Of a DNA stretch of 35,827 bases, positions 13,094-27,493 are shown one piece after another. The translations under genes were made by a program, and so were the position numbers. Within the stretch, counting starts at the first letter, position 1; every line of letters begins with the position of its first letter. This DNA comes from a virus (taxonomy: Duplodnaviria > Heunggongvirae > Uroviricota > Caudoviricetes): the IMG/VR virus record IMGVR_UViG_2534681737_000011, one strand, 5' to 3'. A model generated the notes under the pieces. The model had not been told where the DNA came from, made no database searches, and worked only from the letters and a program-made list of their open reading frames with translations.

Positions 13094-13927
13094 ATGAATA
13101 TTACACAAGATAACTTAGATATTTTCACTGGATCACATGTTGAAGTGTCGATCTCTAACCAGATAGACAATCAGGTCGACTTTTTCGATCCTAGCTTTAG
13201 TTCTATGGAGAACATCGCAGCATTCCCTACGCTAACCGAATCCACAGAGATAGAAACTCTGGAAGAGTACGATCAGGACGCTACGGGGAAACTTGCTGGT
13301 TATCGTAGACTGGAACCGACGACACTCACATTAAACCGTGTTCTTGACGATGAACATCAAGCAATGTTGATGAAAGCGGTAGAGGATAAAACACCTTTAC
13401 GCTTCCGTATGTTCTATGTTGTGAACTCTGGCTATAGTGCTGCTAACACTGGTTACTATGTCATCTATGATGCTTATGTCACTAGCCATAAAACACGAGG
13501 CGGTGATAACAAAGCTGTAACTATGGAATTCAAACTTGAACCAGATGGCGGGATTCTTGCAAGGGGTATAGCGACCGAGGGAAAACTCATCCGACAAGGG
13601 GATTTTGGCGTAGGCTCAGGCGTTAGCCCATTCACCGGACCTATTGATAGTGAATCTCTGACAGGAAACCGCTTTGTAACCTACAAAGGAACGGCTAGCA
13701 CTAACCCTTATGGTGCTGATACATCGTTAATTCATCTTCAAGCTAATGAGCATGGCGCATGGCAATTAACGTGTAATACTTCCGGTGCTCCACGTTTGCG
13801 GGTACGAAATATTCAGGACAACGGAAAATCGGAATGGATTAAAGTCTATACAACAAACGAGAAGCCTACGCCAGCCGAAATTAATGCGGTTGCTAAGACT
13901 GATAGAATCGACTTCGGGGAATACTGA
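13094..13927 (+). CDS. putative virion structural protein (unassigned)
   Basis: 277-aa ORF with AAGGGGTAAT motif; ends in TGA-T followed three codons later by TAA. Confidence 0.5.
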   Translation: MNITQDNLDIFTGSHVEVSISNQIDNQVDFFDPSFSSMENIAAFPTLTESTEIETLEEYDQDATGKLAGYRRLEPTTLTLNRVLDDEHQAMLMKAVEDKTPLRFRMFYVVNSGYSAANTGYYVIYDAYVTSHKTRGGDNKAVTMEFKLEPDGGILARGIATEGKLIRQGDFGVGSGVSPFTGPIDSESLTGNRFVTYKGTASTNPYGADTSLIHLQANEHGAWQLTCNTSGAPRLRVRNIQDNGKSEWIKVYTTNEKPTPAEINAVAKTDRIDFGEY

Positions 13928-13953
13928 TCACTTCTCTAAATAAAACATGACGC

Positions 13954-13986
13954 GGGGAGGTTAATTCCTCCCTTATTCCTGTTTTA
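13954..13986 (+). terminator. hairpin plus T-rich tract, terminator candidate
   Basis: GGGGAGG-ttaa-ttCCTCCC followed by TTATTCCTGTTTTA. Confidence 0.45.
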
Positions 13987-14001
13987 TAGTGAGGTGATTC
14001 A

Positions 14002-17000
14002 ATGGAGTCTATCCAATTTAAACGCACACAGACGGCTGGTAAAAAGCCAACGCCAGAACAACTGGCACAGGGTGAGGTAGCAATTAACCTTGCCGACCAC
14101 GTAATTTACACCAAAGACAAAAATAACGCAGTAGTTCAAATCAGCGTTTCCCCAGAAAGTCATAATGCTTTAAACACGAAAGTAGACAATAACAAGAAAA
14201 CTACTGATTCTACTATCGCGGCAAATAAAACCGAAGCTGCTAACGCTCTGGCTACCGCTAAATCTGAACTGAATAACACTATTAACACGAAAGATACAGC
14301 GACCAATAAGCGCATTGATGCTACTAACACCACTGTTAGTAACTTAACCCAGACAGTCACGGCAAATAAAACCGACGCTGACACCAAGATCAATAACCTT
14401 ACGGGGACAGTTGCGGCAAACAAATCAGCTATTGAAACTACCGTAGCGAATAACAAACGAGACGCGGACAATAAAATCTCAGCTTTAACCACTACGGTTA
14501 ATGACAACAACACCGCGATCAATAGCCGTGTTGATACCACTAACACCAATGTTAGCAATCTGACCAAAACCGTTACAGCTAACAAGTCTGATGCTGATTC
14601 CAAGATCTCCAGCTTAACGAGTACCGTTGCAGCTAACAAATCAGCCATTGAAACTACGGTAGCGAACAATAAACGCGATGCTGATACGAAGATCACCAAC
14701 TTAACCAACACTGTTAATAGCAACCATACCGCCATTAACAACAAGGTTGACCAGAATAAAACCAGCACAGATGCAGCGATTGCAGCCGCTAACAAGCGAA
14801 TTGATGGTATTGAAGGTAGCAACGATGCTCTTTACATCAAGAAGAACACAAATACCTATCATCACGGCTATCTGTTAACCAAAACAGCTAACTATTTTGA
14901 TGATGCTGGTGCTCGTAACCTTGATTATTTTGGTGCGTTTCGTCCGAACAATGCCGAAGGTTGGGGTAACTTAATCCTTAACATTCCTCATTCTGGCGGT
15001 AAAGCACACGGTCGCGGCTTTGAGTTCCATTATGGGTCTAGCTCATCTCAGGTTAAAACCTATGGCTTTGATAAGGACGGTAACAAGAGATTCAGCTATC
15101 GCATGTACCATGAAGGTGATAAGCCGACTCCTGATGAATTGGGTGTGTATAGTAAAGCCGAAGTTGATCAGATGTTCATCAAGAACGTTAGAATGACCGT
15201 TCCTTCTGGTGATGCTACTCGTGGATACTTCAAGATCGCAACCGCTACGATCCCACAGAATGGTCGAATGGTAATGCTTCGTATCTTCGGTGGTAATGGT
15301 TATAACGTTAACTCTTATGATCAGGTTGACTTTGTAGAAATTGTCATCCGTTCCGGTAACAATAACCCGAAAGGCGTTAGTATTGCTGCTTATCGTCGAA
15401 ATGCTCTGAACGTTCATCAAGTATTTGCGGTTAATACTTCCGGTGATAACTACGATATCTACGTTAACTACGGTCGTTACACCGATAACGTTATTGTCGA
15501 ATACGGTAAAACTGATGGCGTTACTCTGACAGTACATGATGTTCCTGAATTAACTCTCGTTAAACCTTCTGTTGGTGTTACCGATGCTCGTGTTATTACG
15601 ATGTTCAACACCGAAAACAAAGCCGGAACGTTGATGTTTGATAATAACGGTCAAGGAACGTATGATATTATCAGTCTGAATAACTCAACTGATACAAATA
15701 AAAAATATCTTCGTAAATTCCGTAGCAAATCAGCCGAAACAATTTGGCATGAAGTTGTTGAAGGTAGTGTCTATCGTTTAGCTACTGGTGTTACTGATAC
15801 AGCGGATCAATTAAAAATTGATTTTAATGGTGTTACTGTAAACCGCCTTTTTGTTAAGGGTAATAACGCTATTAGAATGGAACGCCGCGACGGGCAAAGT
15901 AACTATATCGAATTCTTTGATTATCGTTCTGGTGCTAATCGTCGTCAGGGTTATCTAGGTTATGGTGATGGTACTACTAACACTGTACAGTTAGTAAATG
16001 AATTAACGGAAGGTAATAACTCTGTAAGACTGGATGAGAACGGTCAAGTTTCATTATCCACTGGCAAAACAAAAATTGTGTACACAAACGGCGAATATGT
16101 TGCTGCATACGCTAACGCATTCCGTATGATTTACGGTAACTACGGTGCATTCTGGCGTAATGATGGTGGTAAAGTTTATCTTCTTTCAACTGCCGAAAAT
16201 GATAAATTTGGTGGCTGGAACGGCAACCGACCATTCATTTACGATTTGACTACTGGTAAAGTTACTTTAGGTGGTGATGGTAACGAGGGTGCATTAGTTC
16301 TCGAACGAGATAGCCGTGCTGCTCGATTTGCTGGTGATATTTACGTCGGTAAAGGAATGTTAACCTTTGATGCTGGTCGATTAAATTCTCGCGACTACTT
16401 CCGGTTTAACCATTGGGGCGATAGCAATAACGCTCGTGATAATATCTTACAGCTTGACGATAGCAAAGGTGCACACTTCACCACTGAACGTACTTTAGCA
16501 ACTGGTGCGATTAAAACTAAATTCTTCGGTGATTTAGAAGCTGCTGGACAAATTCGCTGGGGTAAAGGTACTGCAACTTCTACGTTTAATATTCGTGCAT
16601 GGGGCGCTGATGCTCGTAAACAAGTGTTTGAATGTGCTGATGAAAGCGGTTGGCACTGGTATACCCAACGTGCTGGCGGTCCTGGTACTGAATTAATCGA
16701 GTTTGCTATTAACGGTACTGTTAAGCCTAAAGCAATCCACACTGGAGGCAATATCACCCTGAATGGTGCTGATATTGAGTTTAAGCGCACTGGTAACAAG
16801 CATTTATGGTTTAGAGATCCAAACGGCTTAGAGTTGGGTCTGTTGTACTGCGATGATGCTGGTGTTATGCGTATGCGCGGTGAGAAACAAGCCGAAGTCT
16901 GGAAATTCGGCGGTAAGATGATTCACCTTGAAACGGGCACTGTATCCGGTGGCGGTAATGGTCTTATTCGTGGTAGCGTTGCTGGTGGTAGTTGGGCTAG

Positions 17001-17589
17001 CTGGCGTGATCGTGCTTCCGGTATTCAGGTCGACTGCCAGCAATCAACCGATTCCGCTCATAACATCTGGAAAGCAACCCATCAAGGTAAATATCATATC
17101 GCCGCAATGGGTGTACACGTTCCTAGCGGTACTATCGGTAACGCTCTTGTTCGTCTCCATGTTCATGATGCCGTCTTTGACTTTAACGCATCCGGTGACA
17201 TGACGGCAGGTCGTAACGGTAGCTTTAACGATGTTTACATTCGCTCTGACTCTCGTCTGAAAATTAACAAGGAAGAATTACAGGACGGTGCATTAGAGAA
17301 AGTAAACTCCCTGAAAGTATACACCTACGATAAAGTTAAATCTCTTTCTGATGACACGGTAATTAAACGCGAAGTAGGTATTATTGCTCAGGATCTGGAA
17401 AAAGTATTGCCGGAAGCAGTAGGTATTCAATCTACCGAAGATCCAGAACATCCAGAAGCAATCAAGACTATTTCTAACTCTGCTGTCAATGCTTTAATCA
17501 TCAAGGCTATGCAGGAAATGGATGCTAAGTATCAAGCTAAGATTGATGCACTGACTAAAGAATTAGCCGAACTCAAAGCAACTAAATAA
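14002..17589 (+). CDS. long tail fibre protein with C-terminal S74-type intramolecular chaperone domain
   Basis: 1195-aa ORF with GAGGTGA ribosome-binding site; N-terminal repetitive T/N/K/A-rich region with two tandem units of about 72 aa; C-terminal SDSRLK motif followed by a coiled-coil tail, as in self-cleaving fibre and tailspike chaperone domains. Confidence 0.8.
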   Translation: MESIQFKRTQTAGKKPTPEQLAQGEVAINLADHVIYTKDKNNAVVQISVSPESHNALNTKVDNNKKTTDSTIAANKTEAANALATAKSELNNTINTKDTATNKRIDATNTTVSNLTQTVTANKTDADTKINNLTGTVAANKSAIETTVANNKRDADNKISALTTTVNDNNTAINSRVDTTNTNVSNLTKTVTANKSDADSKISSLTSTVAANKSAIETTVANNKRDADTKITNLTNTVNSNHTAINNKVDQNKTSTDAAIAAANKRIDGIEGSNDALYIKKNTNTYHHGYLLTKTANYFDDAGARNLDYFGAFRPNNAEGWGNLILNIPHSGGKAHGRGFEFHYGSSSSQVKTYGFDKDGNKRFSYRMYHEGDKPTPDELGVYSKAEVDQMFIKNVRMTVPSGDATRGYFKIATATIPQNGRMVMLRIFGGNGYNVNSYDQVDFVEIVIRSGNNNPKGVSIAAYRRNALNVHQVFAVNTSGDNYDIYVNYGRYTDNVIVEYGKTDGVTLTVHDVPELTLVKPSVGVTDARVITMFNTENKAGTLMFDNNGQGTYDIISLNNSTDTNKKYLRKFRSKSAETIWHEVVEGSVYRLATGVTDTADQLKIDFNGVTVNRLFVKGNNAIRMERRDGQSNYIEFFDYRSGANRRQGYLGYGDGTTNTVQLVNELTEGNNSVRLDENGQVSLSTGKTKIVYTNGEYVAAYANAFRMIYGNYGAFWRNDGGKVYLLSTAENDKFGGWNGNRPFIYDLTTGKVTLGGDGNEGALVLERDSRAARFAGDIYVGKGMLTFDAGRLNSRDYFRFNHWGDSNNARDNILQLDDSKGAHFTTERTLATGAIKTKFFGDLEAAGQIRWGKGTATSTFNIRAWGADARKQVFECADESGWHWYTQRAGGPGTELIEFAINGTVKPKAIHTGGNITLNGADIEFKRTGNKHLWFRDPNGLELGLLYCDDAGVMRMRGEKQAEVWKFGGKMIHLETGTVSGGGNGLIRGSVAGGSWASWRDRASGIQVDCQQSTDSAHNIWKATHQGKYHIAAMGVHVPSGTIGNALVRLHVHDAVFDFNASGDMTAGRNGSFNDVYIRSDSRLKINKEELQDGALEKVNSLKVYTYDKVKSLSDDTVIKREVGIIAQDLEKVLPEAVGIQSTEDPEHPEAIKTISNSAVNALIIKAMQEMDAKYQAKIDALTKELAELKATK
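14320..14750 (+). repeat. two tandem copies of an about 216-bp coding repeat inside the tail fibre gene
   Basis: Protein units IDATNTTVSNLTQTVTANKTDADTKINNLTGTVAANKSAIETTVANNKRDADNKISALTTTVNDNNTAINSRVD and TTNTNVSNLTKTVTANKSDADSKISSLTSTVAANKSAIETTVANNKRDADTKITNLTNTVNSNHTAINNKVD; also visible at nucleotide level. Confidence 0.75.
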
Positions 17590-17596
17590 TAAAAGT

Positions 17597-17622
17597 CGGG
17601 GGACTAGTTCCCCCGTTATAAC
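17597..17622 (+). terminator. hairpin after the tail fibre gene, weak terminator candidate
   Basis: CGGGGGA-ctagt-TCCCCCG followed by TTATAAC, a short U-tract. Confidence 0.4.
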
Positions 17623-17645
17623 AAATTCAATTAAGGGGTAATTAT

Positions 17646-18122
17646 ATGTCTCAACAATTCAAAGATATTTTTACTGGTGGTCTGGTAAGTATGTTCTATC
17701 AAGCGGACACTACTAATGCCGATCTCTCGGCAGAAAGCTACGAAGAAATTAAAGAGTGTGCTGGTTTTCCTGAAACTGGTATCGAACGCGGTACTGTAGA
17801 AGTTAAATCCTTCTCTTCTCAGTATAACCGTAAACTGGTAGGGAAACTGAACGTTCCTGATCTGACTCTGACCGTTAACTACATCCCAGGTGATGCGGTA
17901 CACGCTAAACTGGATAAGGCAGCCGAAGATGGCACGCGTATTCAGATTAAGATTGAATATTATGTTGATGCTGGTAAGCAGACTGGTATTCGCACCGCTT
18001 TCAACGGCTTTATCTCTAAAGCGGCTATGCAGGGTGGCGATGAAGAAGTCGTAACTAAAGAATATACCTTTGCTGTTGATGGTGCTCCGATCAAACAGGA
18101 AGTGTTTACCGCTGGTGGTTGA
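17646..18122 (+). CDS. major tail (tube) protein, gpV-like
   Basis: 158-aa ORF with AAGGGGTAAT motif; segments (ADLSAESYEE ... GFISKA) recall the lambda gpV N-domain; lies directly upstream of the chaperone pair and tape measure gene. Ends in TGA-A. Confidence 0.6.
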   Translation: MSQQFKDIFTGGLVSMFYQADTTNADLSAESYEEIKECAGFPETGIERGTVEVKSFSSQYNRKLVGKLNVPDLTLTVNYIPGDAVHAKLDKAAEDGTRIQIKIEYYVDAGKQTGIRTAFNGFISKAAMQGGDEEVVTKEYTFAVDGAPIKQEVFTAGG

Positions 18123-18233
18123 ACTTTCGAAGAACAACCCCAGCCAATTCAAGATGAACCTACGGTGATTCCTGAAATTGAGGTTGTTACGGCGAAAGCC
18201 ACAGCTAAACGAAGCCGCAAGGCTAAAGATTAA
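18123..18233 (+). other. stop-free in-frame extension after the major tail TGA (36 codons, ends ...VVTAKATAKRSRKAKD)
   Basis: Translated directly: TFEEQPQPIQDEPTVIPEIEVVTAKATAKRSRKAKD then TAA; same frame as the tail gene; contains the 24-nt block at 18186-18209 identical to 12272-12295. Confidence 0.5.
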
Positions 18234-18238
18234 TTATA

Positions 18239-18267
18239 AGCCCTGCCTTAATGGTGGGGCTTTTTTA
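18239..18267 (+). terminator. rho-independent terminator after the major tail gene and its extension
   Basis: AGCCCTGCC-ttaat-GGTGGGGCT followed by TTTTTT; near-identical to 12331-12357. Confidence 0.7.
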
Positions 18268-18281
18268 TTGGAGTAATCAAA

Positions 18282-18788
18282 ATGGCAAATGTCGTTAAAG
18301 TTCCCGGCTGGATCGGGTCATCGGCTGTATCAGTGACGGGTAAGCGATGGATGAAAGAAGCATTAACAGCTTTAAAAGTTCCGGCTCCGCGTAATATGTC
18401 GGCAATGGCTGGTCGTGGTATGGATACGGTTGTTGCTACTGCTGCATGGTCTACCTCATTGGGTAATAACTGGGGTGTAACTGCTTCAAACTATCCAGTA
18501 ACTGACATGCGCGGTAAAGGATCTATGGAGAACCCCGAAAACGTGGGCGTAGGCCATCTGGTTGGCGTTATCGTTGGTCAATTCAATGGCGGTACTCCTA
18601 CTATGGCTGTATATCTCCAGAACGGTAGAGCGGGGAATATAACCGTTAATTTGGGTGGTGCTGCTGTCACTGTTCCTTATAACAGTATGCAAAGCGGTTT
18701 TCATTACTATTGGTTAAGCAATCCTCCGGCTGCTTTCCTCAATAACATTAAGAAGACTGGCACTAAGCAGACTTTGAAAATCTCTTAA
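18282..18788 (+). CDS. hypothetical tail-module protein
   Basis: 168-aa Gly/Ala-rich ORF with GGAG ribosome-binding site, between the major tail protein and chaperone genes. Confidence 0.5.
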   Translation: MANVVKVPGWIGSSAVSVTGKRWMKEALTALKVPAPRNMSAMAGRGMDTVVATAAWSTSLGNNWGVTASNYPVTDMRGKGSMENPENVGVGHLVGVIVGQFNGGTPTMAVYLQNGRAGNITVNLGGAAVTVPYNSMQSGFHYYWLSNPPAAFLNNIKKTGTKQTLKIS

Positions 18789-18833
18789 ATTCTAAATAAA
18801 TACAGCGTAATCACTATTAATGAGGAAACAATA

Positions 18834-19142
18834 ATGAATCTGAATGAAATGCTGAAAGCTCTTTCTCCGAAACGTGAATCTTTAACCCTCGGAGGATTTA
18901 CGTTCTATGCTCGCCCTATGTCGGTACAAGAATTTAATGAACATGTTTTCAATACTGATAAAAAAGACCGTGATGAACGCTCTATTCTTCGTTGTATTGA
19001 AGATGAAGACGGTAAGCCAGTATTTGAATCTATTGAACAAGTTAAGGCATTGTATACTAGCGTCCGCAGCGAATTAATCGGCTTAGTTGCTCAAGCATCA
19101 TTGATGAAAGATGCGGCGGTAATTGAAAACGAGGTAAAGTAA
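18834..19142 (+). CDS. tail assembly chaperone (gpG-like position)
   Basis: 102-aa ORF with GAGGAA ribosome-binding site, directly upstream of a -1 frame ORF and the tape measure gene. Confidence 0.6.
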   Translation: MNLNEMLKALSPKRESLTLGGFTFYARPMSVQEFNEHVFNTDKKDRDERSILRCIEDEDGKPVFESIEQVKALYTSVRSELIGLVAQASLMKDAAVIENEVK

Positions 19143-19150
19143 ACCCGCTC

Positions 19151-19525
19151 TTGAATTTTTATTTTCGGCAAATGATGCGTCGGGGCTTGAGTAAAGATGA
19201 GATGGATAATATGCCAATTACGCTATTTTGGGCGTTGCATATATTCGATACATATCTTGAACCACAAAGCCCCCTGTTTCAAGATGCGCGACATGCACAG
19301 TCGATGTATTACATGCACGTTACATCTCCTAACATGACTCGTGAATGGTTGAATAAAATCAATGTTAACCAATTCCGAATGATTAAGGACGACAAGCAAT
19401 TTAAAACGCAAGAAGAAATAAAAGAAATTGCTCGTAAGAAAGAGGAAGAACGTAACGCTGCTTTGGTTGATAGTTTTTTCGACGCTTCATTATTACAAAA
19501 GCTCAAGAGCGGACAATTGGGGTAA
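19151..19525 (+). CDS. tail assembly chaperone, gpT-like frame (possibly expressed by -1 frameshift from 18834..19142)
   Basis: ORF in the -1 frame relative to the upstream chaperone, open from 19127; no convincing ribosome-binding site or ATG at its 5-prime end; in the same frame as the tape measure gene, separated from it by one TAA and one codon. Confidence 0.45.
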   Translation: MNFYFRQMMRRGLSKDEMDNMPITLFWALHIFDTYLEPQSPLFQDARHAQSMYYMHVTSPNMTREWLNKINVNQFRMIKDDKQFKTQEEIKEIARKKEEERNAALVDSFFDASLLQKLKSGQLG

Positions 19526-19528
19526 TTT

Positions 19529-21883
19529 ATGACAAGACATATAGTAACAATAGAAGGAGATAATGACGGTCTAAGGAGAAGTACCAATCAGGCGATAGAG
19601 ATGCTTGATAACCTTTCAGAAAGGGCAATGAATCTTGATTTGTCTGGTGGTTTATCTAGTTTAAGTGGAACCCTTCGCGGAACTGGTGGATCGCTTGCTT
19701 TGGCTGCTGGTGGTTTTGTTGGTTTGGCTGCTGGCGCTATTTCTGCTGCAAATGCCATCGGTGATTATGTAAAGGAATACAGCGAAGTTTCAAAAGCAAC
19801 TGGTTTAACCGTCGAAACACTCCAGAAATTAGAGAAGCAATTCTCCGGTACTGGCTTAACCGTTGAGAAATTTGGTGATATTAACAAAGACACCTTAGAT
19901 AAGCTGGCTGATGCATGGCGTAACGGTGGCGGTATTGAAGACGACCTAGAAAGTGTAGGTTTGAAGATTAAAGATTATGCCGAGTTTATGAACGATCCAC
20001 AAGGCGGGATGAAAGCGGCGATCAAGGTCTTCTATGATATGCGCAAGGCTGGTGCGTCTATCGCTGATGTTAAGTTTATGATGGAATCGTTAGCCAGTGA
20101 TTCAAGTCATATGGCTGATGAATTGCAGAAATACGGATCTTATCAGGAAGCTGTAAACGCCATTAATCAGCAAACTGTTAAAATCACCAATGACACAGCC
20201 GAAGAATATAATAAATTCTCTAAAAATATGGATACCCTTACCGATAACTTAAAGGGTATGGCTGCAAATGCACTAAATCCAGTTGTTGAAGGGATGAATA
20301 ATCTTTACAACTGGTTTGATAAAGATTGGGAAAAGACCGCTTTATTCAACGCATTAAAGACTTTTAATGAAAGGTTTGAAAAAGCTCGCCAGAATATGGC
20401 TATGGCTAACGGTGGTTTTATTAACAAGCATGGTTATAGTTCTACTGGTCTAGCGGGTGGACAAGCCAGCTTCAACAATAAACCAAATTATCCTGATCGT
20501 TGGGTGGATAGTGAAGGCGTTACCCGTGATAAAAACGGTGATCCGGTAATTACTATCACTGGAAATAAATCGGATACCGGATTTACCCCAACGGGTCAAG
20601 GTGGAGGCGTCACCGGACCATCGAAAAAAGAACAAGAAGAAGCCAAGAAGAAAGCGGAAGAGGCAGCTAAAAAGGCTAAGGAAGCCGCAGAAAAAGCACA
20701 GAAAGCACGCGAGGATGCAATCAAGCGACTGAATGCTCTTGATGTTAAATTGCAAGGACAGACAGCCGCGTCTATTGCTTCTCAAAACAAGCAGTTAGAA
20801 GCCAGCTTGAAAGATTTAGACACTGCTTTAGATATGGGCTTAATCTCTCAGCAAGACGCAGCCGCTAAACGTCAGCAACTGTTAGATCAGAACGCAGAAA
20901 ACATCTATAAAATGATGTTGGGTGCTGATCCGATTGATGCTCTGAATGCCTTAACAGTTTTGCAACAAATCAGGGACAACGAGCTAGAAAGCCATAAACG
21001 GTTACTTGATGGTAAAGCTATCTCCTACGAAGAATATATGCGTCGTGTGAATGATACCGAGCAAAACTATTCTCAGATTGATAGTCAGTTACAGGGAATG
21101 GATGGTTTTAAAACCAATCAATTGACTAATAGCTTAGACTATCAGGATTCAAATAACCCGTTTGCTAAATTTAATGCAATCGATCAAGAGAAATCGGAAG
21201 CTGAACAAGATTATAAGACCGAAAAACTCAATATTGATGGTATTAATGATCCAGCTAAACGGATGGCTGCATTAGAAAAACTCAATGAAAACCATCAAAA
21301 ACGGATGGCTGCAATTGAAAAGAAATATGCTGATGCTCGCCAGTCAATAGCCGATGATATGTATGGCGGTTTTGCTGCTGCAATGACTCTCTTCGGGCAG
21401 GAAAACACTAAAGCTATGCAGACGGCTTTCAATGCTCATAAAGCATTCTCCATTGGACAAGCGACGGTGAACATGTGGACGGCTGCTACCGATGCATGGA
21501 ACGATCCGACCAACGTAACCACAGGACAAAAGATCGCTGCTGCTGCATTGGCTGTTTCTCAGAACATGGGGAACATCGCAAACATCAAATCGACTAACGT
21601 TAGCGGTATGGCTCATGATGGTATCGATAATATCCCTCGTGAGGGTACATGGTTGCTTGATAAGGGTGAACGAGTAGTTGATCAGCGTACTAACGGTGAT
21701 TTGAAAGACTTCTTATCTGCTCAAAAATCAGGCGGTGGTAACTCTCAGCCGATTGAAGTTAATGCGCCTTTGAACATTAACGGCAACGTTAATAGCTCAG
21801 ACAAGATGGTTATGGATGCTATCAAACGTCACGCTAAGTTAGTTGCTCAGGCGGTAGAAGACGCACAGCGTCGTAAGATGTAA
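19529..21883 (+). CDS. tail tape measure protein
   Basis: 784-aa ORF after the chaperone pair; Gly-rich N-terminal segment, long helical regions (KKEQEEAKKKAEEAAKKAKEAAEKAQKARE), typical position and composition. Confidence 0.8.
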   Translation: MTRHIVTIEGDNDGLRRSTNQAIEMLDNLSERAMNLDLSGGLSSLSGTLRGTGGSLALAAGGFVGLAAGAISAANAIGDYVKEYSEVSKATGLTVETLQKLEKQFSGTGLTVEKFGDINKDTLDKLADAWRNGGGIEDDLESVGLKIKDYAEFMNDPQGGMKAAIKVFYDMRKAGASIADVKFMMESLASDSSHMADELQKYGSYQEAVNAINQQTVKITNDTAEEYNKFSKNMDTLTDNLKGMAANALNPVVEGMNNLYNWFDKDWEKTALFNALKTFNERFEKARQNMAMANGGFINKHGYSSTGLAGGQASFNNKPNYPDRWVDSEGVTRDKNGDPVITITGNKSDTGFTPTGQGGGVTGPSKKEQEEAKKKAEEAAKKAKEAAEKAQKAREDAIKRLNALDVKLQGQTAASIASQNKQLEASLKDLDTALDMGLISQQDAAAKRQQLLDQNAENIYKMMLGADPIDALNALTVLQQIRDNELESHKRLLDGKAISYEEYMRRVNDTEQNYSQIDSQLQGMDGFKTNQLTNSLDYQDSNNPFAKFNAIDQEKSEAEQDYKTEKLNIDGINDPAKRMAALEKLNENHQKRMAAIEKKYADARQSIADDMYGGFAAAMTLFGQENTKAMQTAFNAHKAFSIGQATVNMWTAATDAWNDPTNVTTGQKIAAAALAVSQNMGNIANIKSTNVSGMAHDGIDNIPREGTWLLDKGERVVDQRTNGDLKDFLSAQKSGGGNSQPIEVNAPLNINGNVNSSDKMVMDAIKRHAKLVAQAVEDAQRRKM

Positions 21884-21889
21884 TTAAAA

Positions 21890-21933
21890 GCCCCCATAGT
21901 CATAAATAATCATAAAACTATGGGGGCTTTTCT
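21890..21933 (+). terminator. rho-independent terminator after the tape measure gene
   Basis: GCCCCCATAGT ... ACTATGGGGGC long hairpin followed by TTTTC; the next gene's ribosome-binding site lies within the 3-prime arm. Confidence 0.6.
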
Positions 21934-22494
21934 ATGTTCAAATCCAAGAATATTAAAATCACAGATTTTACTCTTAAATCAAAACAACCTTTCTTCAAGG
22001 CGCAATCTATCTCCGGTAAGTTCCAGCGTCGCTTTACTGGCATTCATTTTTATGAAGCAGAATTTACAGCTAATTTCATGGCTCAGGACATTAACGAAGT
22101 AAAAGAATTTGTAGCACGTCACCTTTTTGGTCGTCCTTTTAGTGTGCCACTGTCTTACTTTTCAAAATATACAGGTGATGTACGCCAGATGGTTACGGCT
22201 GCTGCTGGTACTGCTCGCGGTGGGCGTAAGGTGAGAATCTCCAACTTCACCGGAACACTGAAAGCGGGAACTGTCATCCAGTTTGAGAACCACAAGAAAA
22301 TCTACACGATCACCGAAGACGTGAAATCAGGTGGTGAAATGAAACTCTTCCCTAACTTGCGTCAAAACGTCCTGGCTGGTGAGGTGATCAAGTATCAGAA
22401 CGTAGAAGGCGAATTTGTTCTCAAAACTGAAAATATCGATTGGAAGATCGCCCAGATTGGCAAGATGAAATTCGAATTAGTGGAGAATGTATAA
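21934..22494 (+). CDS. minor tail protein (distal tail, gpM-like position)
   Basis: 186-aa ORF immediately after the tape measure gene; call from synteny. Confidence 0.55.
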   Translation: MFKSKNIKITDFTLKSKQPFFKAQSISGKFQRRFTGIHFYEAEFTANFMAQDINEVKEFVARHLFGRPFSVPLSYFSKYTGDVRQMVTAAAGTARGGRKVRISNFTGTLKAGTVIQFENHKKIYTITEDVKSGGEMKLFPNLRQNVLAGEVIKYQNVEGEFVLKTENIDWKIAQIGKMKFELVENV

Positions 22495-23147
22495 TGGCAA
22501 CTATTCAGGAATCATTCAGCAAACTATGCACTAATCTGGACTTCATCGAGGTCTACAACGACCAGACAGGTCAGAATGTGTCTAGATTGACTCTACCGCA
22601 GCTTTTCTCCACTGGATCGATGTTTCACATTATCGAAGTAGTAACCGCGTCAGGGGACGTTCTACGGCTTACAGATGGGTATTTCGATCTGGACTATAAC
22701 GGATTTACGTATCTCGCAACGGGTGATTTTCTTCAAATCTCATCGAATACCGAAGAGAAGGAGATCAACAACAACGGGATCAACGTAACTGTTTCTAACG
22801 TTCGCGAAGAATACATTACCCTGATTCGAAACAAGCAATTCGATAAATCTGATGTGAAAATCGAGATGGTTTTCCTTAACCCCAACACGGGCAAGGTTGA
22901 AACTACTTACCCTGTTTTCCGTGGGGTAGTCGATTCCATCGGTATTAACATCGAACATGAAGATGATGAGTGTAAAAACGAATCAGAATTTCAGCTTAAT
23001 AGTATCTGGGAAGTTCTAGATAAAAACGCTCGTAGTCATGCCTCCGATGGTATCCACCGATCCTATGTTGGAAACGAGAACGATCTATTCTTCTCAAGGG
23101 CGGGTCGCTGGCAATCAGAAAGCAAGTGGCATTCATCGAAGAAATAA
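22494..23147 (+). CDS. minor tail protein (gpL-like position)
   Basis: Start ATG overlaps the previous TAA (TAATG) with a GGAGA ribosome-binding site 7 nt upstream; the ORF-track start at 22440 lacks this support. Confidence 0.55.
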   Translation: MATIQESFSKLCTNLDFIEVYNDQTGQNVSRLTLPQLFSTGSMFHIIEVVTASGDVLRLTDGYFDLDYNGFTYLATGDFLQISSNTEEKEINNNGINVTVSNVREEYITLIRNKQFDKSDVKIEMVFLNPNTGKVETTYPVFRGVVDSIGINIEHEDDECKNESEFQLNSIWEVLDKNARSHASDGIHRSYVGNENDLFFSRAGRWQSESKWHSSKK

Positions 23148-23193
23148 TCCCTTCTCCCTAAGCCTAGTAAATAACTGCATGGAGGTATTCAAC

Positions 23194-23613
23194 ATGCTAA
23201 AAACTAGGCTTATCACCGATTACATCAATTCTTTAATAGGTCAGGAGTTCGTTCAGGGTGAGAATGATTGCAATCTAATTGCATGTAAGATCATCGATAT
23301 TCTCGCTGGTACTGACCTATATAATTCTCTTTATAAAAAATATTCAACTAAAGAAGAAGGTTTGAAAATCTGCAAAGAATTAAGCGGGTATTCAAATATC
23401 CTTCAACCAATTAAGAAACATTTCAAATTAGTCACTGATGATTTACAGGACGGCGACTTACTGGTCACAGCCCACAAATTAGGAAACCGTAATTATTATT
23501 CCGTAGTTCCTCATTATTCCGGTTATGGCCTCGTTGAAGAAGATGGTATCTGGATGACCATTCCTGTTTCAGACATTGACTATGAACAAGTTTATAGATT
23601 CGGGGGTGAATAA
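23194..23613 (+). CDS. tail assembly protein, gpK-like (NlpC/P60-like Cys/His motifs)
   Basis: GGAGGT ribosome-binding site 8 nt before the ATG at 23194 (the 23038 start would overlap the previous gene); ENDC ... GDLLV ... H pattern suggests a papain-like NlpC/P60 fold. Confidence 0.55.
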   Translation: MLKTRLITDYINSLIGQEFVQGENDCNLIACKIIDILAGTDLYNSLYKKYSTKEEGLKICKELSGYSNILQPIKKHFKLVTDDLQDGDLLVTAHKLGNRNYYSVVPHYSGYGLVEEDGIWMTIPVSDIDYEQVYRFGGE

Positions 23614-26600
23614 TGGGATTTGAAGTATTGGTAGGCGCGGTTATTGCTGGTGCTTCGGCGGGGATGGCGGCAGCCGCAACATTTTCGGTTATGACCGCAG
23701 TCGCTATCGGTATGGCTGCTGGTGCAATGACTTTGATCGCTTCCACTGTAGGCGCACCAAAAACACCTAAAGTACAAAGCCCAGATAATGCGGTGACACT
23801 AGGAACATCAAACGATCCGAAAGCGGTGATACCAGTCGTTTTCGGTACTACCCGCACTGGCACAAACTGTGTTTACAAAGCAGTTTCTAAGCAAGAAAAC
23901 AATAAGCTAGTGCAAATCTTCTCTGTAGCCGAGGGTGAAATCGACCATTACAAAGCACTCTTTATTGATAATAAAAATGTTCTTGTTGGTAAGAACATGA
24001 CGATCCGTGATGGTATTCTCGATAAGGGCAACATTAAAGAAGAATATCGTAAAGTATTAGAAGTCGAGTTCCGCACGGGCAAGAATCCTAACACCGCTTT
24101 GTCGCTGGCAAAACGTCATTTAGGCTCAGACTGGACCGACGCTTTCAAGGGTAACGGCATTGCGACCATGTGTATTGTGTTACGTCGTGATGACAAATCT
24201 CTTGCTGCTGGTGTTGATATTCTCCAGCCAAATAGCCAGGTAGCAGTAGACGTTTGCGGCCTTAAAATCCGTAACCTTGAAACCAATGCTATTGAGGCTA
24301 GCACTAACGGCGTGGATCAGATTTTCCACTACCTAACAAATGAAAAATATGGCTTATCCGTACCAATTGAAAACATTAACGTTGATTCATTCCTGAAAGT
24401 ACGTAAACAAGTACGCCAGATGGATCTACATTCAAACGGTGCATGTGATCCGAACGCCAGCTTTAAAGAGAACTTGACTAATCTTATGCAGACTTTCGGC
24501 GGGGTGATGTTCGAATCCTTTGGACGTATTACGCTGAAACTGGATGCTCCTGATATTGTTAAGCATACCTTCAATGAAGACAATATCATGATGGGTAAGG
24601 TATCACTGAAAACAGGTGGCACTAACGGTTATTTCAATACCATTAACGCGATGTATCAAGAACCATCAATTGACTATTCAGAGCAAATGCTACGTTATCC
24701 GGCTGATGCTGAAAACGATGCTACTGTTCGCGCAGATGGTCGAATTATTGCTAAGGATGTAGAATATCGTTTCGTTAAGTCTAAAGATCAGATTGATAAA
24801 CTCGCGAGCATTGAGCGAAATAAATCTCGTATCACTCAGGTTATCAGCTTTATGACTACTGACGCATTCACTGCCGAAGTTTGGGATGTTATCAGCGTAA
24901 CCTATGATGAATTGAAGCTGAATAATTCCTTATGGCGTATTACTGCAATTGATCGCTCGATTGATTCTGGTATTGCTGGGATGATGACTATCACCGCCAC
25001 AGAATATAATTCTCAGGTTTATACTGACCTGAACTATGCGGCTAACCCAGATAACCGACCAAGTGGTTTACCGGATTCAATGACAGTACAGAAGCCTACT
25101 AATTTCAGGATTAAGGCAACTGGTGAGACGATTTACGGTAAAAACGTTACTTTGACATGGGACGCGCCGGAAGATTTTAACCGTTATGGTTTTCAGATTG
25201 ATTACCGTGTAAGCGGATCACCTAACTGGATTAAGCTGGGACAGACTTCACAGCAAATTTTTAGTGTCAATGCACTGGCTAAAGATCGTTCCTACGATTA
25301 CCGAGTTTGTGCTTTCGGTATCATCGCTCGATCCGATTGGGTAGAACTGGTTAACCAGAATCCGACTGTTACCTATGAATTGCCGACTCCGGTTATTCGA
25401 ATCAAAAATCAGGGTAGCACGCCTGGTACTTTCGAAGGCAATGATCTGATTATCGAATGGGAAAATCAGCAACAATTAGATGTTGAGATCAACGGTGAAA
25501 CTAACAAGTTTAGTGACCTGTTTGAAGCATACATTATCAAGGTGACTAACAAGGCTGGTAAGTCTATTCAGTACCGTACCCGCGATCCTGAATCATGGAC
25601 TTATACGCTTGATATGAACCAGTTTAACGGCCTTTCGCGTCAACTGACGGTAGAAGTATCAGCTAAGGGCTATAACAACTCAGAGAGCGCCCCAGCGCGT
25701 TTAGTGGCTATCAACCCACAACATAAGCCAATGAAAGGTTTTAGTGCGCGTGGTGGCTTTAATACTGCGTTTGTTAGCTGGGCGGATGACGTAGAACATG
25801 ACTATGCAGGGTCAATCATCCAGTATGCAACCGATAACACTTTCTCAGATGCAAGGGCGGTAAGCACGAATAGTGTTAGCCATACTTCCTTTGATTTGGC
25901 AGACGGTGATTATTATATCCGTGGTGCTCACTACGATATTTTCGGTATGGATGATGCTGTTTGGTCTGAACCGTATTTCATGCAAATGAAATCTACCATT
26001 AGCTGGGACGATCAGGACAAAGAAGCACTGGAAGACCTGATTGGTTTACAAGACCGCTTAGATGAAACTATCGCGGATGCTATTGCTCAAGCTGGCGCTA
26101 ATGCCGATGCTAAAATTGATGCAATGCATAAGCAAATCACTACCGAAACAGGGCAGACGGTCCAAGCCTCAGCCAATACCTTAAAGAGTCTGATTGCTAC
26201 CAGCGAGCAAGCTAGCTCCACTAAGATTGATCAGGTTAAAGCTGAACTGAAAGGCGATATCACCAAAGAAGTTAGTGCATCTGCTACTACCCTGAAACAA
26301 GCTATTGCTACCAGTGAAGCAGCAAGCGCAAGTAAGATTGACCAAGTTCGGGTAGAAATGGATGGCAAGATTGCTGGTGTGAATCAGGAAGCAGATGTAA
26401 AAATCGATGCTTTGAAGGGAACCATTAACAGCAAATATAATCTGGCGGTTAATGCAGATGGTCGCGTGGCTGGTATTCACATGAGCGCAACCAACGATCC
26501 GGCGCAACCGACGAGAATCATCTTTAATGCTGATAAAATTGCGGTAGCTCCACAGAACGGATCGGAAGTATGCCCGTTTGGTATCGAAGGTAACAAGGTT

Positions 26601-27389
26601 TATCTCGATAATGCGATGATTCGTAATGCTGCAATTGGTACAGCCCAGATTAATGATGCGGCGATTACCACGGCTAAAATCGGCAATGCTGCAATTAACA
26701 GCGCGAAGATTCAGGACGGGGCAATCACTAACGCGAAGATCGTAAACGGTGCAATTGATAACGCTAAAATCGGTAACTATATCCAGTCTTCCAACTGGAA
26801 CGGATCGACCGGATGGCATATCAACAAGAACGGGTCCGCTACGTTCATGAATGCAACCGTTAAAGGTAATATCACTGCCGATTCTGGTACTCTGAACAAC
26901 GTCACGATTAACTCTAGCTGTGTTATTAAGGGTATGCTTGAAGCTACTCAGGTTAAGGGGGATTTCGTTAAGGTGATTGGACGTAAGTTCCCGCATCGTG
27001 ATGTTAACGTTGATAATGGTTATGCTGGTTATCCACAGGGTACGGTCACTGTTCGCGTTGAAGATGATCACAAGTTCGATCGTCAAATCGTTATTCCGGC
27101 TGTTAGTTTTGGTGGATTGCGAGCGCGTGAAGGGTCGAACAATAATACCTATTACGACACCTGTCGCCTGATTGTTCGTAAGAATGGGTCAGAGTTGTAT
27201 AATAGGGCGTATGGCGGTAATACTGGTCTTTACTCAGGTGTTATTGATATGCCAGCGGGTAAAGGTGCTGTGACCTTGACCTTTGAAGTGCAATCAAGCG
27301 CAATCAACAACTGGACGCCTAGCACATGGATCAGTGATTTAACAGTAATGGTAACTAAAAAAGCCACTACTGGTATTACTGTTTCTTAA
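23613..27389 (+). CDS. tail tip / central fibre host-specificity protein, lambda J-like with N-terminal gpI-like hydrophobic segment
   Basis: 1258-aa ORF starting at a TAATG overlap; first about 60 aa (GAVIAGASAGMAAAATFSVMTAVAIGMAAGAMTLIASTVGAPKTPK) resemble the lambda gpI C-terminus; C-terminal region (DDHKFDRQIVIP ... IDMPAGKGAVTLTF ... MVTKKATTGITVS) resembles the lambda J receptor-binding end as recalled from memory. Confidence 0.8.
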   Translation: MGFEVLVGAVIAGASAGMAAAATFSVMTAVAIGMAAGAMTLIASTVGAPKTPKVQSPDNAVTLGTSNDPKAVIPVVFGTTRTGTNCVYKAVSKQENNKLVQIFSVAEGEIDHYKALFIDNKNVLVGKNMTIRDGILDKGNIKEEYRKVLEVEFRTGKNPNTALSLAKRHLGSDWTDAFKGNGIATMCIVLRRDDKSLAAGVDILQPNSQVAVDVCGLKIRNLETNAIEASTNGVDQIFHYLTNEKYGLSVPIENINVDSFLKVRKQVRQMDLHSNGACDPNASFKENLTNLMQTFGGVMFESFGRITLKLDAPDIVKHTFNEDNIMMGKVSLKTGGTNGYFNTINAMYQEPSIDYSEQMLRYPADAENDATVRADGRIIAKDVEYRFVKSKDQIDKLASIERNKSRITQVISFMTTDAFTAEVWDVISVTYDELKLNNSLWRITAIDRSIDSGIAGMMTITATEYNSQVYTDLNYAANPDNRPSGLPDSMTVQKPTNFRIKATGETIYGKNVTLTWDAPEDFNRYGFQIDYRVSGSPNWIKLGQTSQQIFSVNALAKDRSYDYRVCAFGIIARSDWVELVNQNPTVTYELPTPVIRIKNQGSTPGTFEGNDLIIEWENQQQLDVEINGETNKFSDLFEAYIIKVTNKAGKSIQYRTRDPESWTYTLDMNQFNGLSRQLTVEVSAKGYNNSESAPARLVAINPQHKPMKGFSARGGFNTAFVSWADDVEHDYAGSIIQYATDNTFSDARAVSTNSVSHTSFDLADGDYYIRGAHYDIFGMDDAVWSEPYFMQMKSTISWDDQDKEALEDLIGLQDRLDETIADAIAQAGANADAKIDAMHKQITTETGQTVQASANTLKSLIATSEQASSTKIDQVKAELKGDITKEVSASATTLKQAIATSEAASASKIDQVRVEMDGKIAGVNQEADVKIDALKGTINSKYNLAVNADGRVAGIHMSATNDPAQPTRIIFNADKIAVAPQNGSEVCPFGIEGNKVYLDNAMIRNAAIGTAQINDAAITTAKIGNAAINSAKIQDGAITNAKIVNGAIDNAKIGNYIQSSNWNGSTGWHINKNGSATFMNATVKGNITADSGTLNNVTINSSCVIKGMLEATQVKGDFVKVIGRKFPHRDVNVDNGYAGYPQGTVTVRVEDDHKFDRQIVIPAVSFGGLRAREGSNNNTYYDTCRLIVRKNGSELYNRAYGGNTGLYSGVIDMPAGKGAVTLTFEVQSSAINNWTPSTWISDLTVMVTKKATTGITVS

Positions 27390-27406: not shown

Positions 27407-27448
27407 TAATCCCGCTTAATTCTTTTGGGTTAGGCGGGATTATTTTTA
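27407..27448 (+). terminator. rho-independent terminator after the J-like gene
   Basis: TAATCCCGC ... GCGGGATTA hairpin followed by TTTTTATC. Confidence 0.65.
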
Positions 27449-27493
27449 TCTAAATAATTTTGCCATTAAACTATATAAAATATCGGGGGCGTA

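Follow-up and report, generated by a model that had tools for sequence, protein, structure and literature searches.

A tail-tip module of a siphovirus-type Escherichia coli prophage with a gpI-like segment at the start of its J-like protein

Gene order and limits of the module

The window, that is, the whole stretch of 35,827 nucleotides analysed here, carries on its plus strand four consecutive tail genes in the order distal tail protein, gpL-like hub, NlpC/P60-fold protein of about 140 residues, and tip protein. The module begins with the gene for a distal tail protein of 186 aa (21934..22494), which matched phrog_1302 (E 2.3e-16) and, weakly, the B-domain of T5 pb9; in related viral contigs, distal-tail-protein homologues were also located upstream of the hub gene. 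The next gene (22494..23147) encodes a 217-aa hub of the gpL/RcGTA g13 type, corresponding to the attachment domain HDI, with matches to phrog_2048 (E 3.9e-28) and to the baseplate hub N-terminal attachment domain Pfam Phage_phiJL001_Gp84_N (E 8e-6; bit score 26.5, cutoff 26). PGAP names its homologues in E. coli genomes DUF2163 domain proteins. The translation contains only two Cys residues and thus lacks a four-Cys Fe-S site.

The third ORF (23194..23613) occupies the slot of gpK and RcGTA g14 and encodes 139 aa, with GGAGG 8 nt upstream; an alternative ATG at 23179 would lengthen the product by five residues. It overlaps, as TAATG, the ORF of the 1258-aa tip protein (23613..27389), and the limits that the first-pass annotation had given for these two genes were correct. 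An N-terminal extension of the tip ORF was excluded by an in-frame TGA at 23607..23609, two codons upstream of the start. A consensus scan placed a terminator-like hairpin with a 16-bp stem and a T-run at 27407..27452 on the plus strand, closing the tail operon. Searches by tblastn found no ubiquitin-like (Ubl), JAB or gpL-type sequence in the remainder of the window, and the idea that gpI/Ubl or JAB is encoded there as a separate gene was accordingly discarded.

The 139-residue protein between hub and tip genes

The product of the third gene had been described as a short protein with NlpC/P60-like motifs in the position of gpK. Its fold and position agreed with that description, and likeness to the gpK sequence was undetected: BLASTP against gpK was empty, and hhalign gave an E value of 0.12 over the Cys motif only. 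The protein has a single domain with DUF6950 as its sole match, whereas lambda K carries Prok-JAB at residues 10-56; the JAB/MPN domain of TAPK was not seen here. Neither Pfam NLPC_P60 nor the NCBIfam phage NlpC models matched the protein, its family profile returned only noise from the PDB, and no mention of DUF6950 was found in a literature search. The protein is therefore related to gpK by fold and position only, not by detectable sequence.

Cys26 and His94 were kept in homologues of only about 29-34% identity. They are candidate catalytic residues. When the protein was compared without gaps to gpK and the canonical NlpC/P60 motifs, the position of the catalytic His was taken by a variable Asn/Tyr, and His94 lay 6-7 residues earlier. 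We propose that the protein may be a stand-alone cysteine peptidase of the NlpC/P60 fold, translationally coupled to the tip gene and most likely active in tip assembly. Like RcGTA g14, for which this has been proposed, it may also travel in the tail lumen and act there as a peptidase of peptidoglycan.

Somewhat short of even odds, in our estimate, the protein is instead a non-structural tip-assembly factor like gpK, inactive or acting on a phage protein and not present in the virion. The absence of gpK from lambda virions by mass spectrometry (PMC10721106) is consistent with this, as are the unconserved canonical His position and the unmatched peptidase models. Moreover, some distant relatives have a GNAT acetyltransferase in the hub-tip slot, and at least one relative has nothing there; therefore, a peptidoglycan hydrolase is not obligatory for this tip design. 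The persistence of Cys26 and His94 at such divergence argues against the assembly-factor role, and so does RcGTA g14, a 150-aa peptidase of equal size, slot and fold class that degrades peptidoglycan, without which tails do not form and which has tentatively been located in the lumen of the tail (PMC7296036). The protein studied here belongs to DUF6950 and not to the classical phage NlpC/P60 family. Because the slot contains JAB plus NlpC/P60 in lambda, NlpC/P60 only in the present module, and GNAT or nothing in relatives, it is also conceivable, if rather improbable, that its occupant is not primarily a peptidoglycan hydrolase but processes or covalently modifies the tip plug or the membrane-insertion segment during assembly, and that the lost Ubl and JAB domains were a dedicated device for the delivery and release of a free plug. 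If so, the prophage would offer a minimal natural system in which the two activities of gpK can be told apart.

The tip protein from its N-terminus to its receptor-binding end

In lambda, gpI from residue 101 onward comprises H1/H2, the plug (159-175) and beta-strands that run through the hub domains of J (PMC11101478). The first-pass annotation had compared about 60 residues at the start of the tip protein with the hydrophobic C-terminal part of gpI. The homology held, but its length was about 95 aa, and the significant alignment fell in the non-hydrophobic stretch 48-97, although the hydropathy of the preceding residues was indeed similar. BLASTP aligned tip residues 48-92 with lambda gpI 156-208 at 36% identity (E 1e-5). 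A profile-type comparison with gpI, which the same annotation had suggested, gave a probability of 95.8% and an E value of 6.5e-9 for tip 49-96 against gpI 159-212 (hhalign). Furthermore, a family profile built from nine N-termini of the tip-protein family found lambda gpI among the PDB sequences (E 8.4e-7), pairing its positions 10-97 with gpI 118-213 and, within these, 10-47 with gpI 118-155. The family profile was required for this match, as phmmer with the single N-terminal sequence missed gpI in the PDB.

Based on hydropathy and the family profile, the uncharged, Ala/Gly-rich residues 1-47 (23613..23753) were assigned as the equivalent of the gpI H1/H2 hydrophobic helices. There is no charged residue between E4 and K50 (residues 5-49), and the KD(19) hydropathy of this stretch, 1.4-1.7, resembles that of gpI 99-157, which is also long and uncharged. 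Residues 48-97 (23754..23903), assigned by BLASTP, profile and hhalign, are a homologue of the gpI plug and J-hub-augmenting beta-strands, with the motifs APKxPxxQxxDN in the plug and PVVFGxxRxG in the beta-strand. T5 pb3 carries the same motif internally at 262-311 (family profile, E 1.5e-7), and the alignment of the tip protein with pb3 starts at about pb3 residue 262.

The N-terminus thus shows the TAPI arrangement of a Gly/Ala-rich H1/H2 region and then a plug and beta-strand domain (TAPI-C), not as a separate polypeptide between K and J but as residues 1-97 of the 1258-aa ORF; the segment was also part of the tip protein in all relatives examined. The protein opens directly with the hydrophobic segment, without a ubiquitin-like beta-grasp domain: Pfam gave no match in tip 1-130 even at E 10 (lambda gpI itself, 1.1e-28), and tblastn with gpI gave no further match in the window. 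These alignments support the view that a gpI C-terminal segment (H1/H2, plug and beta-strands) is covalently joined to the start of the J-like protein.

AF2 left the N-terminal 64 residues unmodelled (pLDDT <30) with a shallow input alignment of 13 sequences, because N-terminal searches gave few relatives: word-indexed searches with this region returned at least eight close relatives, and the low-complexity N-terminus swamped the candidates. Low pLDDT is expected if the segment needs the trimer or a membrane to fold. An exhaustive representative search with tip 1-110 gave 10 matches, with gpI out of reach at the E-values of a whole library, and is therefore unfit as a census of fused versus split forms.

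A 45-residue uncharged stretch at the extreme N-terminus that lacks a confident AF2 structure could also suggest a membrane anchor or signal-like leader, tethering the protein to the inner membrane during assembly and later cleaved, in place of a virion plug. We regard this as improbable. The stretch runs straight into residues homologous to the gpI plug and beta-strands, which have been resolved within the lambda tip, and it has neither a positively charged n-region nor a signal-peptidase-type motif. In addition, the same N-terminal architecture was resolved in the RcGTA megatron, whose residues 1-46 form the iris/penetration domain (PMC7296036); this parallel is positional and compositional only, because the family profile did not detect the N-termini of the RcGTA and R4C megatrons. 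Still less probable is a compositional coincidence of Ala/Gly-rich sequence without homology. The first 47 residues are of low complexity and Pfam gave no gpI family match, in line with the phmmer result, but Pfam Lambda_tail_I models gpI 14-97 (the ubiquitin-like domain) only and is blind to similarity in the C-terminal part. The gpI likeness is not an artefact of composition because the significant alignment lies in the non-hydrophobic residues 48-97, where it is collinear with T5 pb3 262-311 and then continues with J 22-53.

Beyond the plug homologue, the chain follows the domain order of J. Residues ~98-485 (23904..25067) are the hub domains HDII-HDIV, which correspond to the J N-terminal region, the pb3 core and the megatron central domain. 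They are followed at residues ~490-790 (25080..25982; limits approximate) by fibronectin-III-like (FN3) repeats: phrog_5616 and phrog_496 span this region, Pfam fn3 scored below cutoff at 508-570 (E 0.006), and a 100%-identical partial homologue bears the NCBI name 'fibronectin type III domain-containing protein'. The central-fibre 'tail tip fibre' domain at residues 931-1066 (26403..26810) matched Pfam Phage_Tail_Tip over 931-1028 (E 5.6e-18). It includes five decapeptide repeats (I-x-N/D-A-A-I-x-x-A-K; residues ~1003-1055) without counterpart in lambda J, which shows a gap of about 60 residues opposite them in the BLASTP alignment; the repeats were also found in family members P0036, P0038, P0040 and P0041.

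Residues 1067-1258 and the stop codon (26811..27389) comprise a J-type C-terminal stalk and receptor-binding domain (RBD). The proposed resemblance of the C-terminus to the lambda J receptor-binding end was borne out by Pfam Ig_GpJ_C at 1124-1258 (E 8e-34) and by BLASTP of tip 949-1258 against J 872-1132 (E 5e-36). Only the C-terminal 973-1163 of NCBIfam lambda_TipJ matched, with 205.8 bits against a cutoff of 1950. In the PDB, the C-terminus matched 9wca, 'A8 gpJ 713' (E 2.9e-54), and lambda J 8xcj (E 1.4e-35), and the RBD was 54% identical to the OmpC-binding A8 gpJ and 43% to the LamB-binding lambda J. Judged by sequence, the nearest solved receptor-binding domain is that of A8 gpJ, not that of lambda J; among solved structures, this chimera RBD (PDB 9wca/9wcb; Brodel et al. 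2024, PMC11338833) stands closest to the C-terminal 192 residues, and it shares their J-type fold family and is derived from a lambdoid J protein. As A8 gpJ delivers DNA via OmpC (PMC11338833), OmpC is our best guess for the receptor porin; given 54% identity, the receptor may be a different porin.

Distribution, relation to known tail tips and proposed working

The order distal tail protein-hub-DUF6950-tip was present in 57 of 5426 complete E. coli genomes (about 1%), in phage DCP80 and Vibrio phage 83AMN, and in diverse IMG/VR contigs, the most divergent of which keep 22-30% identity in the N-terminal part of the tip protein. A tip protein of 1228-1287 aa with the same N-terminus and architecture was found in 54 E. 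coli genomes at ≥80% coverage, and also in IMG/VR contigs and cluster representatives of 41-57% identity. When the module was compared by megablast with 50,697 phage records, no match was obtained, relatives surfacing by tblastn only; the starting motif of the IMG/VR census lay in the J-like part, so that the census could not find split gpI-type genes. Prophage tail genes often decay, and a merger of separate I-like and J-like genes by frameshift or assembly error was considered for this reason, but nothing was found in its favour, and this distribution, the lack of a Ubl remnant, the TAATG-coupled start and the in-frame stop upstream make it the most remote of the readings.

We read the locus, with a probability of about 0.78, as the tail-tip module, or baseplate hub, of an E. 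coli prophage of siphovirus type with a two-polypeptide hub subunit whose plug is fused to a J-type fibre protein; lambda uses three polypeptides and T5 one. The 217-aa protein would provide the gpL-like HDI, and the 1258-aa chain the H1/H2-like segment, gpI-type plug and beta-strands, HDII-HDIV, FN3-like domains, central fibre and lambda-J-type RBD. Judging from the homologous structures of lambda, T5 and RcGTA, three tip proteins would form a cone beneath the distal-tail-protein hexamer, with their N-terminal segments probably in the lumen, where they would close the channel and hold up the tape measure protein at its C-terminus. Once the C-terminal domain has bound a trimeric porin of the outer membrane, fibre and hub domains would rearrange, and the tape measure protein and DNA would then exit. 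In lambda, LamB binding opens the plug, and H1/H2 were proposed to insert in the outer membrane (PMC11101478), as the equivalent segment may do here.

The proteins of the module have no detectable sequence similarity to lambda gpM, gpL or gpK. In the lambda order M-L-K-I-J, gpI is separate, whereas here the plug appears covalently attached, so that neither the gpI ubiquitin-like domain nor the gpK JAB domain, both missing, would be needed. The 4Fe-4S site of gpL is likewise missing from the hub, and RcGTA g13 also differs in binding an Fe-S cluster. The gene order is shared with RcGTA g12-g15 (Bardy et al. 2020, PMC7296036): distal tail protein, hub, peptidase of about 150 aa and large tip protein with an N-terminal hydrophobic channel-closing segment, the segments lacking a match at the sequence level. 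The megatron ends in a side-fibre-binding domain, whereas the tip protein ends in a lambda-J-type central fibre and RBD. T5 pb3, to which gpL, gpI and the J N-terminus correspond (PMC10721106), contains the gpI-type segment in a single chain with HDI to HDIV, its plug lying in an HDII insertion and not at the N-terminus, and T5 relies on pb5 as a receptor-binding protein of its own and not on a C-terminus of the J type. Iyer, Burroughs and Aravind (2006; PMC1779556) reported prophages with TAPI fused to J, found through the gpI ubiquitin-like domain that is missing here (TAPI-C only), and gpK versions with NlpC/P60 alone.

Taken together, the feature is real and had been read correctly in the first-pass annotation. 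The equivalence to pb3, TAPI-TAPJ fusions and NlpC-only gpK versions were already known, and because T5 pb3, the RcGTA megatron and the 2006 examples precede it, the arrangement is ordinary and follows a known plan of tail construction. That the gpI ubiquitin-like and gpK JAB domains were lost together fits the 2006 prediction of their paired action and adds no new principle. The analysis gives better annotation for a prophage tail module of about 1% of complete E. coli genomes: for DUF6950, NlpC/P60-fold tail-tip protein is a suitable label, the "phage tail tip protein" may be called a fused gpI-C/J hub-fibre protein, and OmpC is a testable guess for the receptor. The module would represent a natural two-chain intermediate between the three-chain hub of lambda and the one-chain hub of T5.

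Gene order of the tail tip region

The window is a siphovirus-type prophage's structural arm, with genes for large terminase, portal, tail tube proteins, chaperones, and a tape measure protein of 784 aa. Four genes on the same (+) strand lie downstream of the tape measure gene. These genes encode a 186-aa distal tail protein (21934-22494; phrog_1302, E 2.3e-16), a 217-aa hub protein (22494-23147; Pfam Phage_phiJL001_Gp84_N, a baseplate-hub attachment domain, E 8e-6; phrog_2048, E 3.9e-28), a 139-aa protein (23194-23613; Pfam DUF6950, E 3.3e-12), and a 1258-aa tip protein (23613-27389). The last two genes overlap at TAATG. The tip protein cannot begin any further upstream, because an in-frame TGA lies two codons 5' of its ATG; a terminator-like 16-bp hairpin is located 3' of the tip gene. 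The ORF map, the upstream TGA, and the downstream hairpin therefore indicate that the module limits of the first-pass annotation were exact.

Between the tape measure and distal tail protein genes, the 50 nt that separate stop from start codon are filled by a further, very stable hairpin (21886-21931, +; stem of 15 bp, -24 kcal/mol, z -6.2) with UUUU after it; only 3 nt lie between its 3' arm and the ATG. Such an element might act as an attenuating terminator, or control translation, between the tube/tape-measure and tip genes. On the opposite strand of the fibre and receptor-binding domain (RBD)-coding part of the tip gene, a 301-aa ORF (26181-27086, -) is most likely fortuitous, facing a repeat-rich region.

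Among the other structural genes, a 668-aa protein (10184-12190, +) matched the major head protein family phrog_617 (E 1.7e-91), the head maturation protease phrog_80 (E 2.7e-8), and phrog_4523, "major head and protease protein", which suggests a protease-capsid fusion gene. The tail-tube region contains a T-even-style side-fibre cassette (13094-18788, +) in an unusual position upstream of the tape-measure chaperones. It includes a 1195-aa fibre protein (14002-17589; phrog_1699, "long tail fiber distal subunit", E 1e-141) with Gp34_trimer and Peptidase_S74 chaperone domains and a gp38-like adhesin (18282-18788; Gp38_N, E 4e-15), and is flanked and interleaved by two tail-tube paralogues (13094-13927, 277 aa; 17646-18122, 158 aa) that are 29% identical (E 3e-16). 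With the tip protein and this cassette, the phage would thus combine a central fibre of the J type with side fibres of the gp37/gp38 type.

Tip protein and its DUF6950 neighbour

Residues 5-49 of the tip protein contain no charged residue, and their KD19 hydropathy (1.4-1.7) resembles that of lambda gpI 99-157. At the sequence level, it is the non-hydrophobic stretch following these residues that carries the decisive evidence for likeness to gpI. BLASTP aligned tip residues 48-92 with gpI 156-208 (36% identity, E 1e-5); a profile of nine family N-termini matched gpI 118-213 among 177,635 PDB sequences (E 8.4e-7); and hhalign gave a probability of 95.8% (E 6.5e-9), bearing out the earlier proposal that the protein starts with a segment like the C-terminal part of gpI. 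In lambda, two hydrophobic helices (H1/H2) span gpI 101-158, the plug is made of residues 159-175, and the remainder consists of beta-strands threaded between the J hub domains (PMC11101478; PMC10721106). From the matched region and these structures, therefore, the whole structurally resolved part of gpI opens the tip protein. The gpI ubiquitin-like (Ubl) domain is absent, as Pfam Lambda_tail_I, which models only this domain, gave no match to the tip protein.

The same N-terminal profile matched T5 pb3 262-311 at tip residues 71-120 (E 1.5e-7) and, weakly but collinearly, lambda J 22-53 at residues 97-124. An AlphaFold2 model of residues 1-500 (pLDDT about 80 at 70-480 and below 30 at 1-64) matched siphophage hub proteins, with those of JBD30, Sf11, and T1 among the later-ranked ones. 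Thus, the tip protein has the single-chain order of pb3, in which the C-terminal part of gpI is followed by the N-terminal part of J, a correspondence already put forward for lambda by Xiao et al., who equated gpL, gpI, and the J N-terminus together with pb3 (PMC10721106).

The 139-aa protein gave a confident AlphaFold2 model (pLDDT 88.7, 18 homologues in the alignment), which among predicted viral structures most resembled phage DUF6950 proteins (130-144 aa) and, after these, NlpC/P60 proteins. Cys26 is located at a helix N-terminus, as in papain-like enzymes. In close homologues, Cys26 is invariant and His94 is present in 17 of 18, and both are retained in the homologues from Escherichia phage DCP80 (about 29% identity; "GLNDCN", "GDFCIIKH") and Vibrio phage 83AMN ("GKSDCW", "GDIVVYMDVH"). 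When the motifs were compared without gaps, a variable residue stood where the canonical catalytic His would be expected. Catalytic activity is plausible. Neither BLASTP nor hhalign found significant sequence similarity between the 139-aa protein and lambda gpK. Since gpK scanned as Prok-JAB plus NLPC_P60 in the same Pfam search, whereas the 139-aa protein gave DUF6950, the contrast previously drawn between a single-domain protein and the two-domain gpK was correct. Lambda gpK is not a virion protein (PMC10721106), and its RcGTA counterpart g14 is possibly one (PMC7296036). A literature search found no paper on DUF6950, and the locus contributes a fold assignment for this family.

At the C-terminus, Pfam Phage_Tail_Tip (931-1028, E 5.6e-18) and Ig_GpJ_C (1124-1258, E 8e-34) were detected, and BLASTP aligned residues 949-1258 with lambda J 872-1132 (E 5e-36), confirming the J-like end noted earlier. 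Five decapeptide repeats add about 60 residues to the tip protein and do not occur in lambda J. The nearest solved structure was "A8 gpJ 713" (E 2.9e-54; lambda J, E 1.4e-35), and the RBD is 54% identical to A8 versus 43% to lambda. A8, taken from a natural gpJ C-terminus and grafted onto lambda, delivers DNA via OmpC into lamB-deleted cells (PMC11338833); by analogy, OmpC is therefore a reasonable guess for the receptor. The N-terminal 1050 residues are common to family members and the C-termini differ (for example, in family member P0036), which is the usual mosaic pattern of receptor-binding modules.

Distribution of the module

Megablast against 50,697 phage records found no nucleotide match to the tip module. 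Of 5426 complete E. coli genomes, 57 carried it at 80-99% identity, chromosomal in every case; there, PGAP names its genes "phage tail tip protein", "DUF2163 domain-containing protein", "hypothetical protein", and "DUF6950 family protein". At the protein level, Salmonella, Providencia, Citrobacter, and Klebsiella have relatives; among phages, DCP80 is the closest (tip protein identity 39%, over 89% of the length), followed by Vibrio phages. DCP80 and 83AMN (Queuovirinae) have the same gene order, and the 83AMN tip protein also has a hydrophobic N-terminus.

An IMG/VR census, whose seed was a motif in the J-like part so that split gpI genes cannot be counted, gave 52 loci whose products are related to the N-terminal 125 residues. 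For 27 loci taken as representatives, the match fell within the first approximately 125 residues of the ORF, and the complete ORFs carrying it were 630-1287 aa. Homologues of the distal tail and hub proteins were recognisable upstream in nearly all representative loci, a DUF6950 homologue (136-151 aa) adjoined the tip gene in the closer relatives and three distant ones, and no upstream ORF matched lambda K, I, or L.

In some distant relatives, a 159-168-aa GNAT acetyltransferase-family protein replaces DUF6950 between the hub and tip genes (IMG/VR contigs L050, 5276-5770; L051, 5423-5917; L054, 1521-2027; L055, 1830-2309). Those of L050 and L054 matched Acetyltransf_1 above the Pfam gathering score (E 2.5e-9 and 6e-8), and those of L051 and L055 were assigned by visible sequence similarity to them. 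In another locus (L045, 5315-5914), the hub gene directly adjoins the tip gene. The enzyme between hub and tip is therefore exchangeable or dispensable.

The DCP80 module (L002, PQ671644) is located at 14463-22437 of a 141-kb genome that is filed under Straboviridae and has motA and endonuclease VII genes as well; its DUF6950 homologue (18285-18668) carries no annotation. For a record classified as T4-like, a tip module of siphovirus type seems odd, and could reflect a chimeric genome, an assembly problem, or misclassification.

Comparison with known tips and a probable mechanism

RcGTA is the closest overall parallel. Its g12 is a distal tail protein, the role assigned to 21934-22494, and its hub g13 shares a Pfam family with the 217-aa hub protein. 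The 150-aa peptidase g14 degrades peptidoglycan and is needed for tail formation, and an N-terminal hydrophobic segment of g15 closes the channel (PMC7296036); searching PDB with the family profile found no sequence match between this segment and the tip N-terminus. Lambda gpL and RcGTA g13 contain a four-Cys iron-sulfur cluster (PMC10721106; PMC7296036), whereas the hub protein has only two Cys residues, and so cannot form one. The C-terminus of the tip protein is also a lambda-type central fibre, unlike RcGTA.

By homology, the tip would most likely be a trimer of the hub and tip proteins beneath a distal-tail-protein hexamer, in which the covalently joined gpI-like segments would plug the lumen below the tape measure C-terminus. 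Receptor binding would open the hub domains and free the plug and the hydrophobic N-termini, which would probably enter the outer membrane; we infer the location and fate of residues 1-64 from homology. This mechanism has been proposed for lambda gpI H1/H2 (PMC11101478), the T5 pb3 plug (PMC10721106), and the RcGTA megatron's iris/penetration domain (PMC7296036).

In the account of Iyer et al. (2006), gpI consists of a Ubl domain, a Gly-rich linker, and a C-terminal part (TAPI-C). They recorded TAPI-TAPJ fusions and NlpC-only versions of gpK, and their prediction was that the JAB domain of gpK frees the Ubl domain of gpI (PMC1779556). All three parts of the first-pass description of the module are supported. 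The remainder of the picture comes from the lambda, T5, and RcGTA structures; to this the locus adds a clean example of TAPI-C fusion to J with neither the Ubl nor the JAB domain present.
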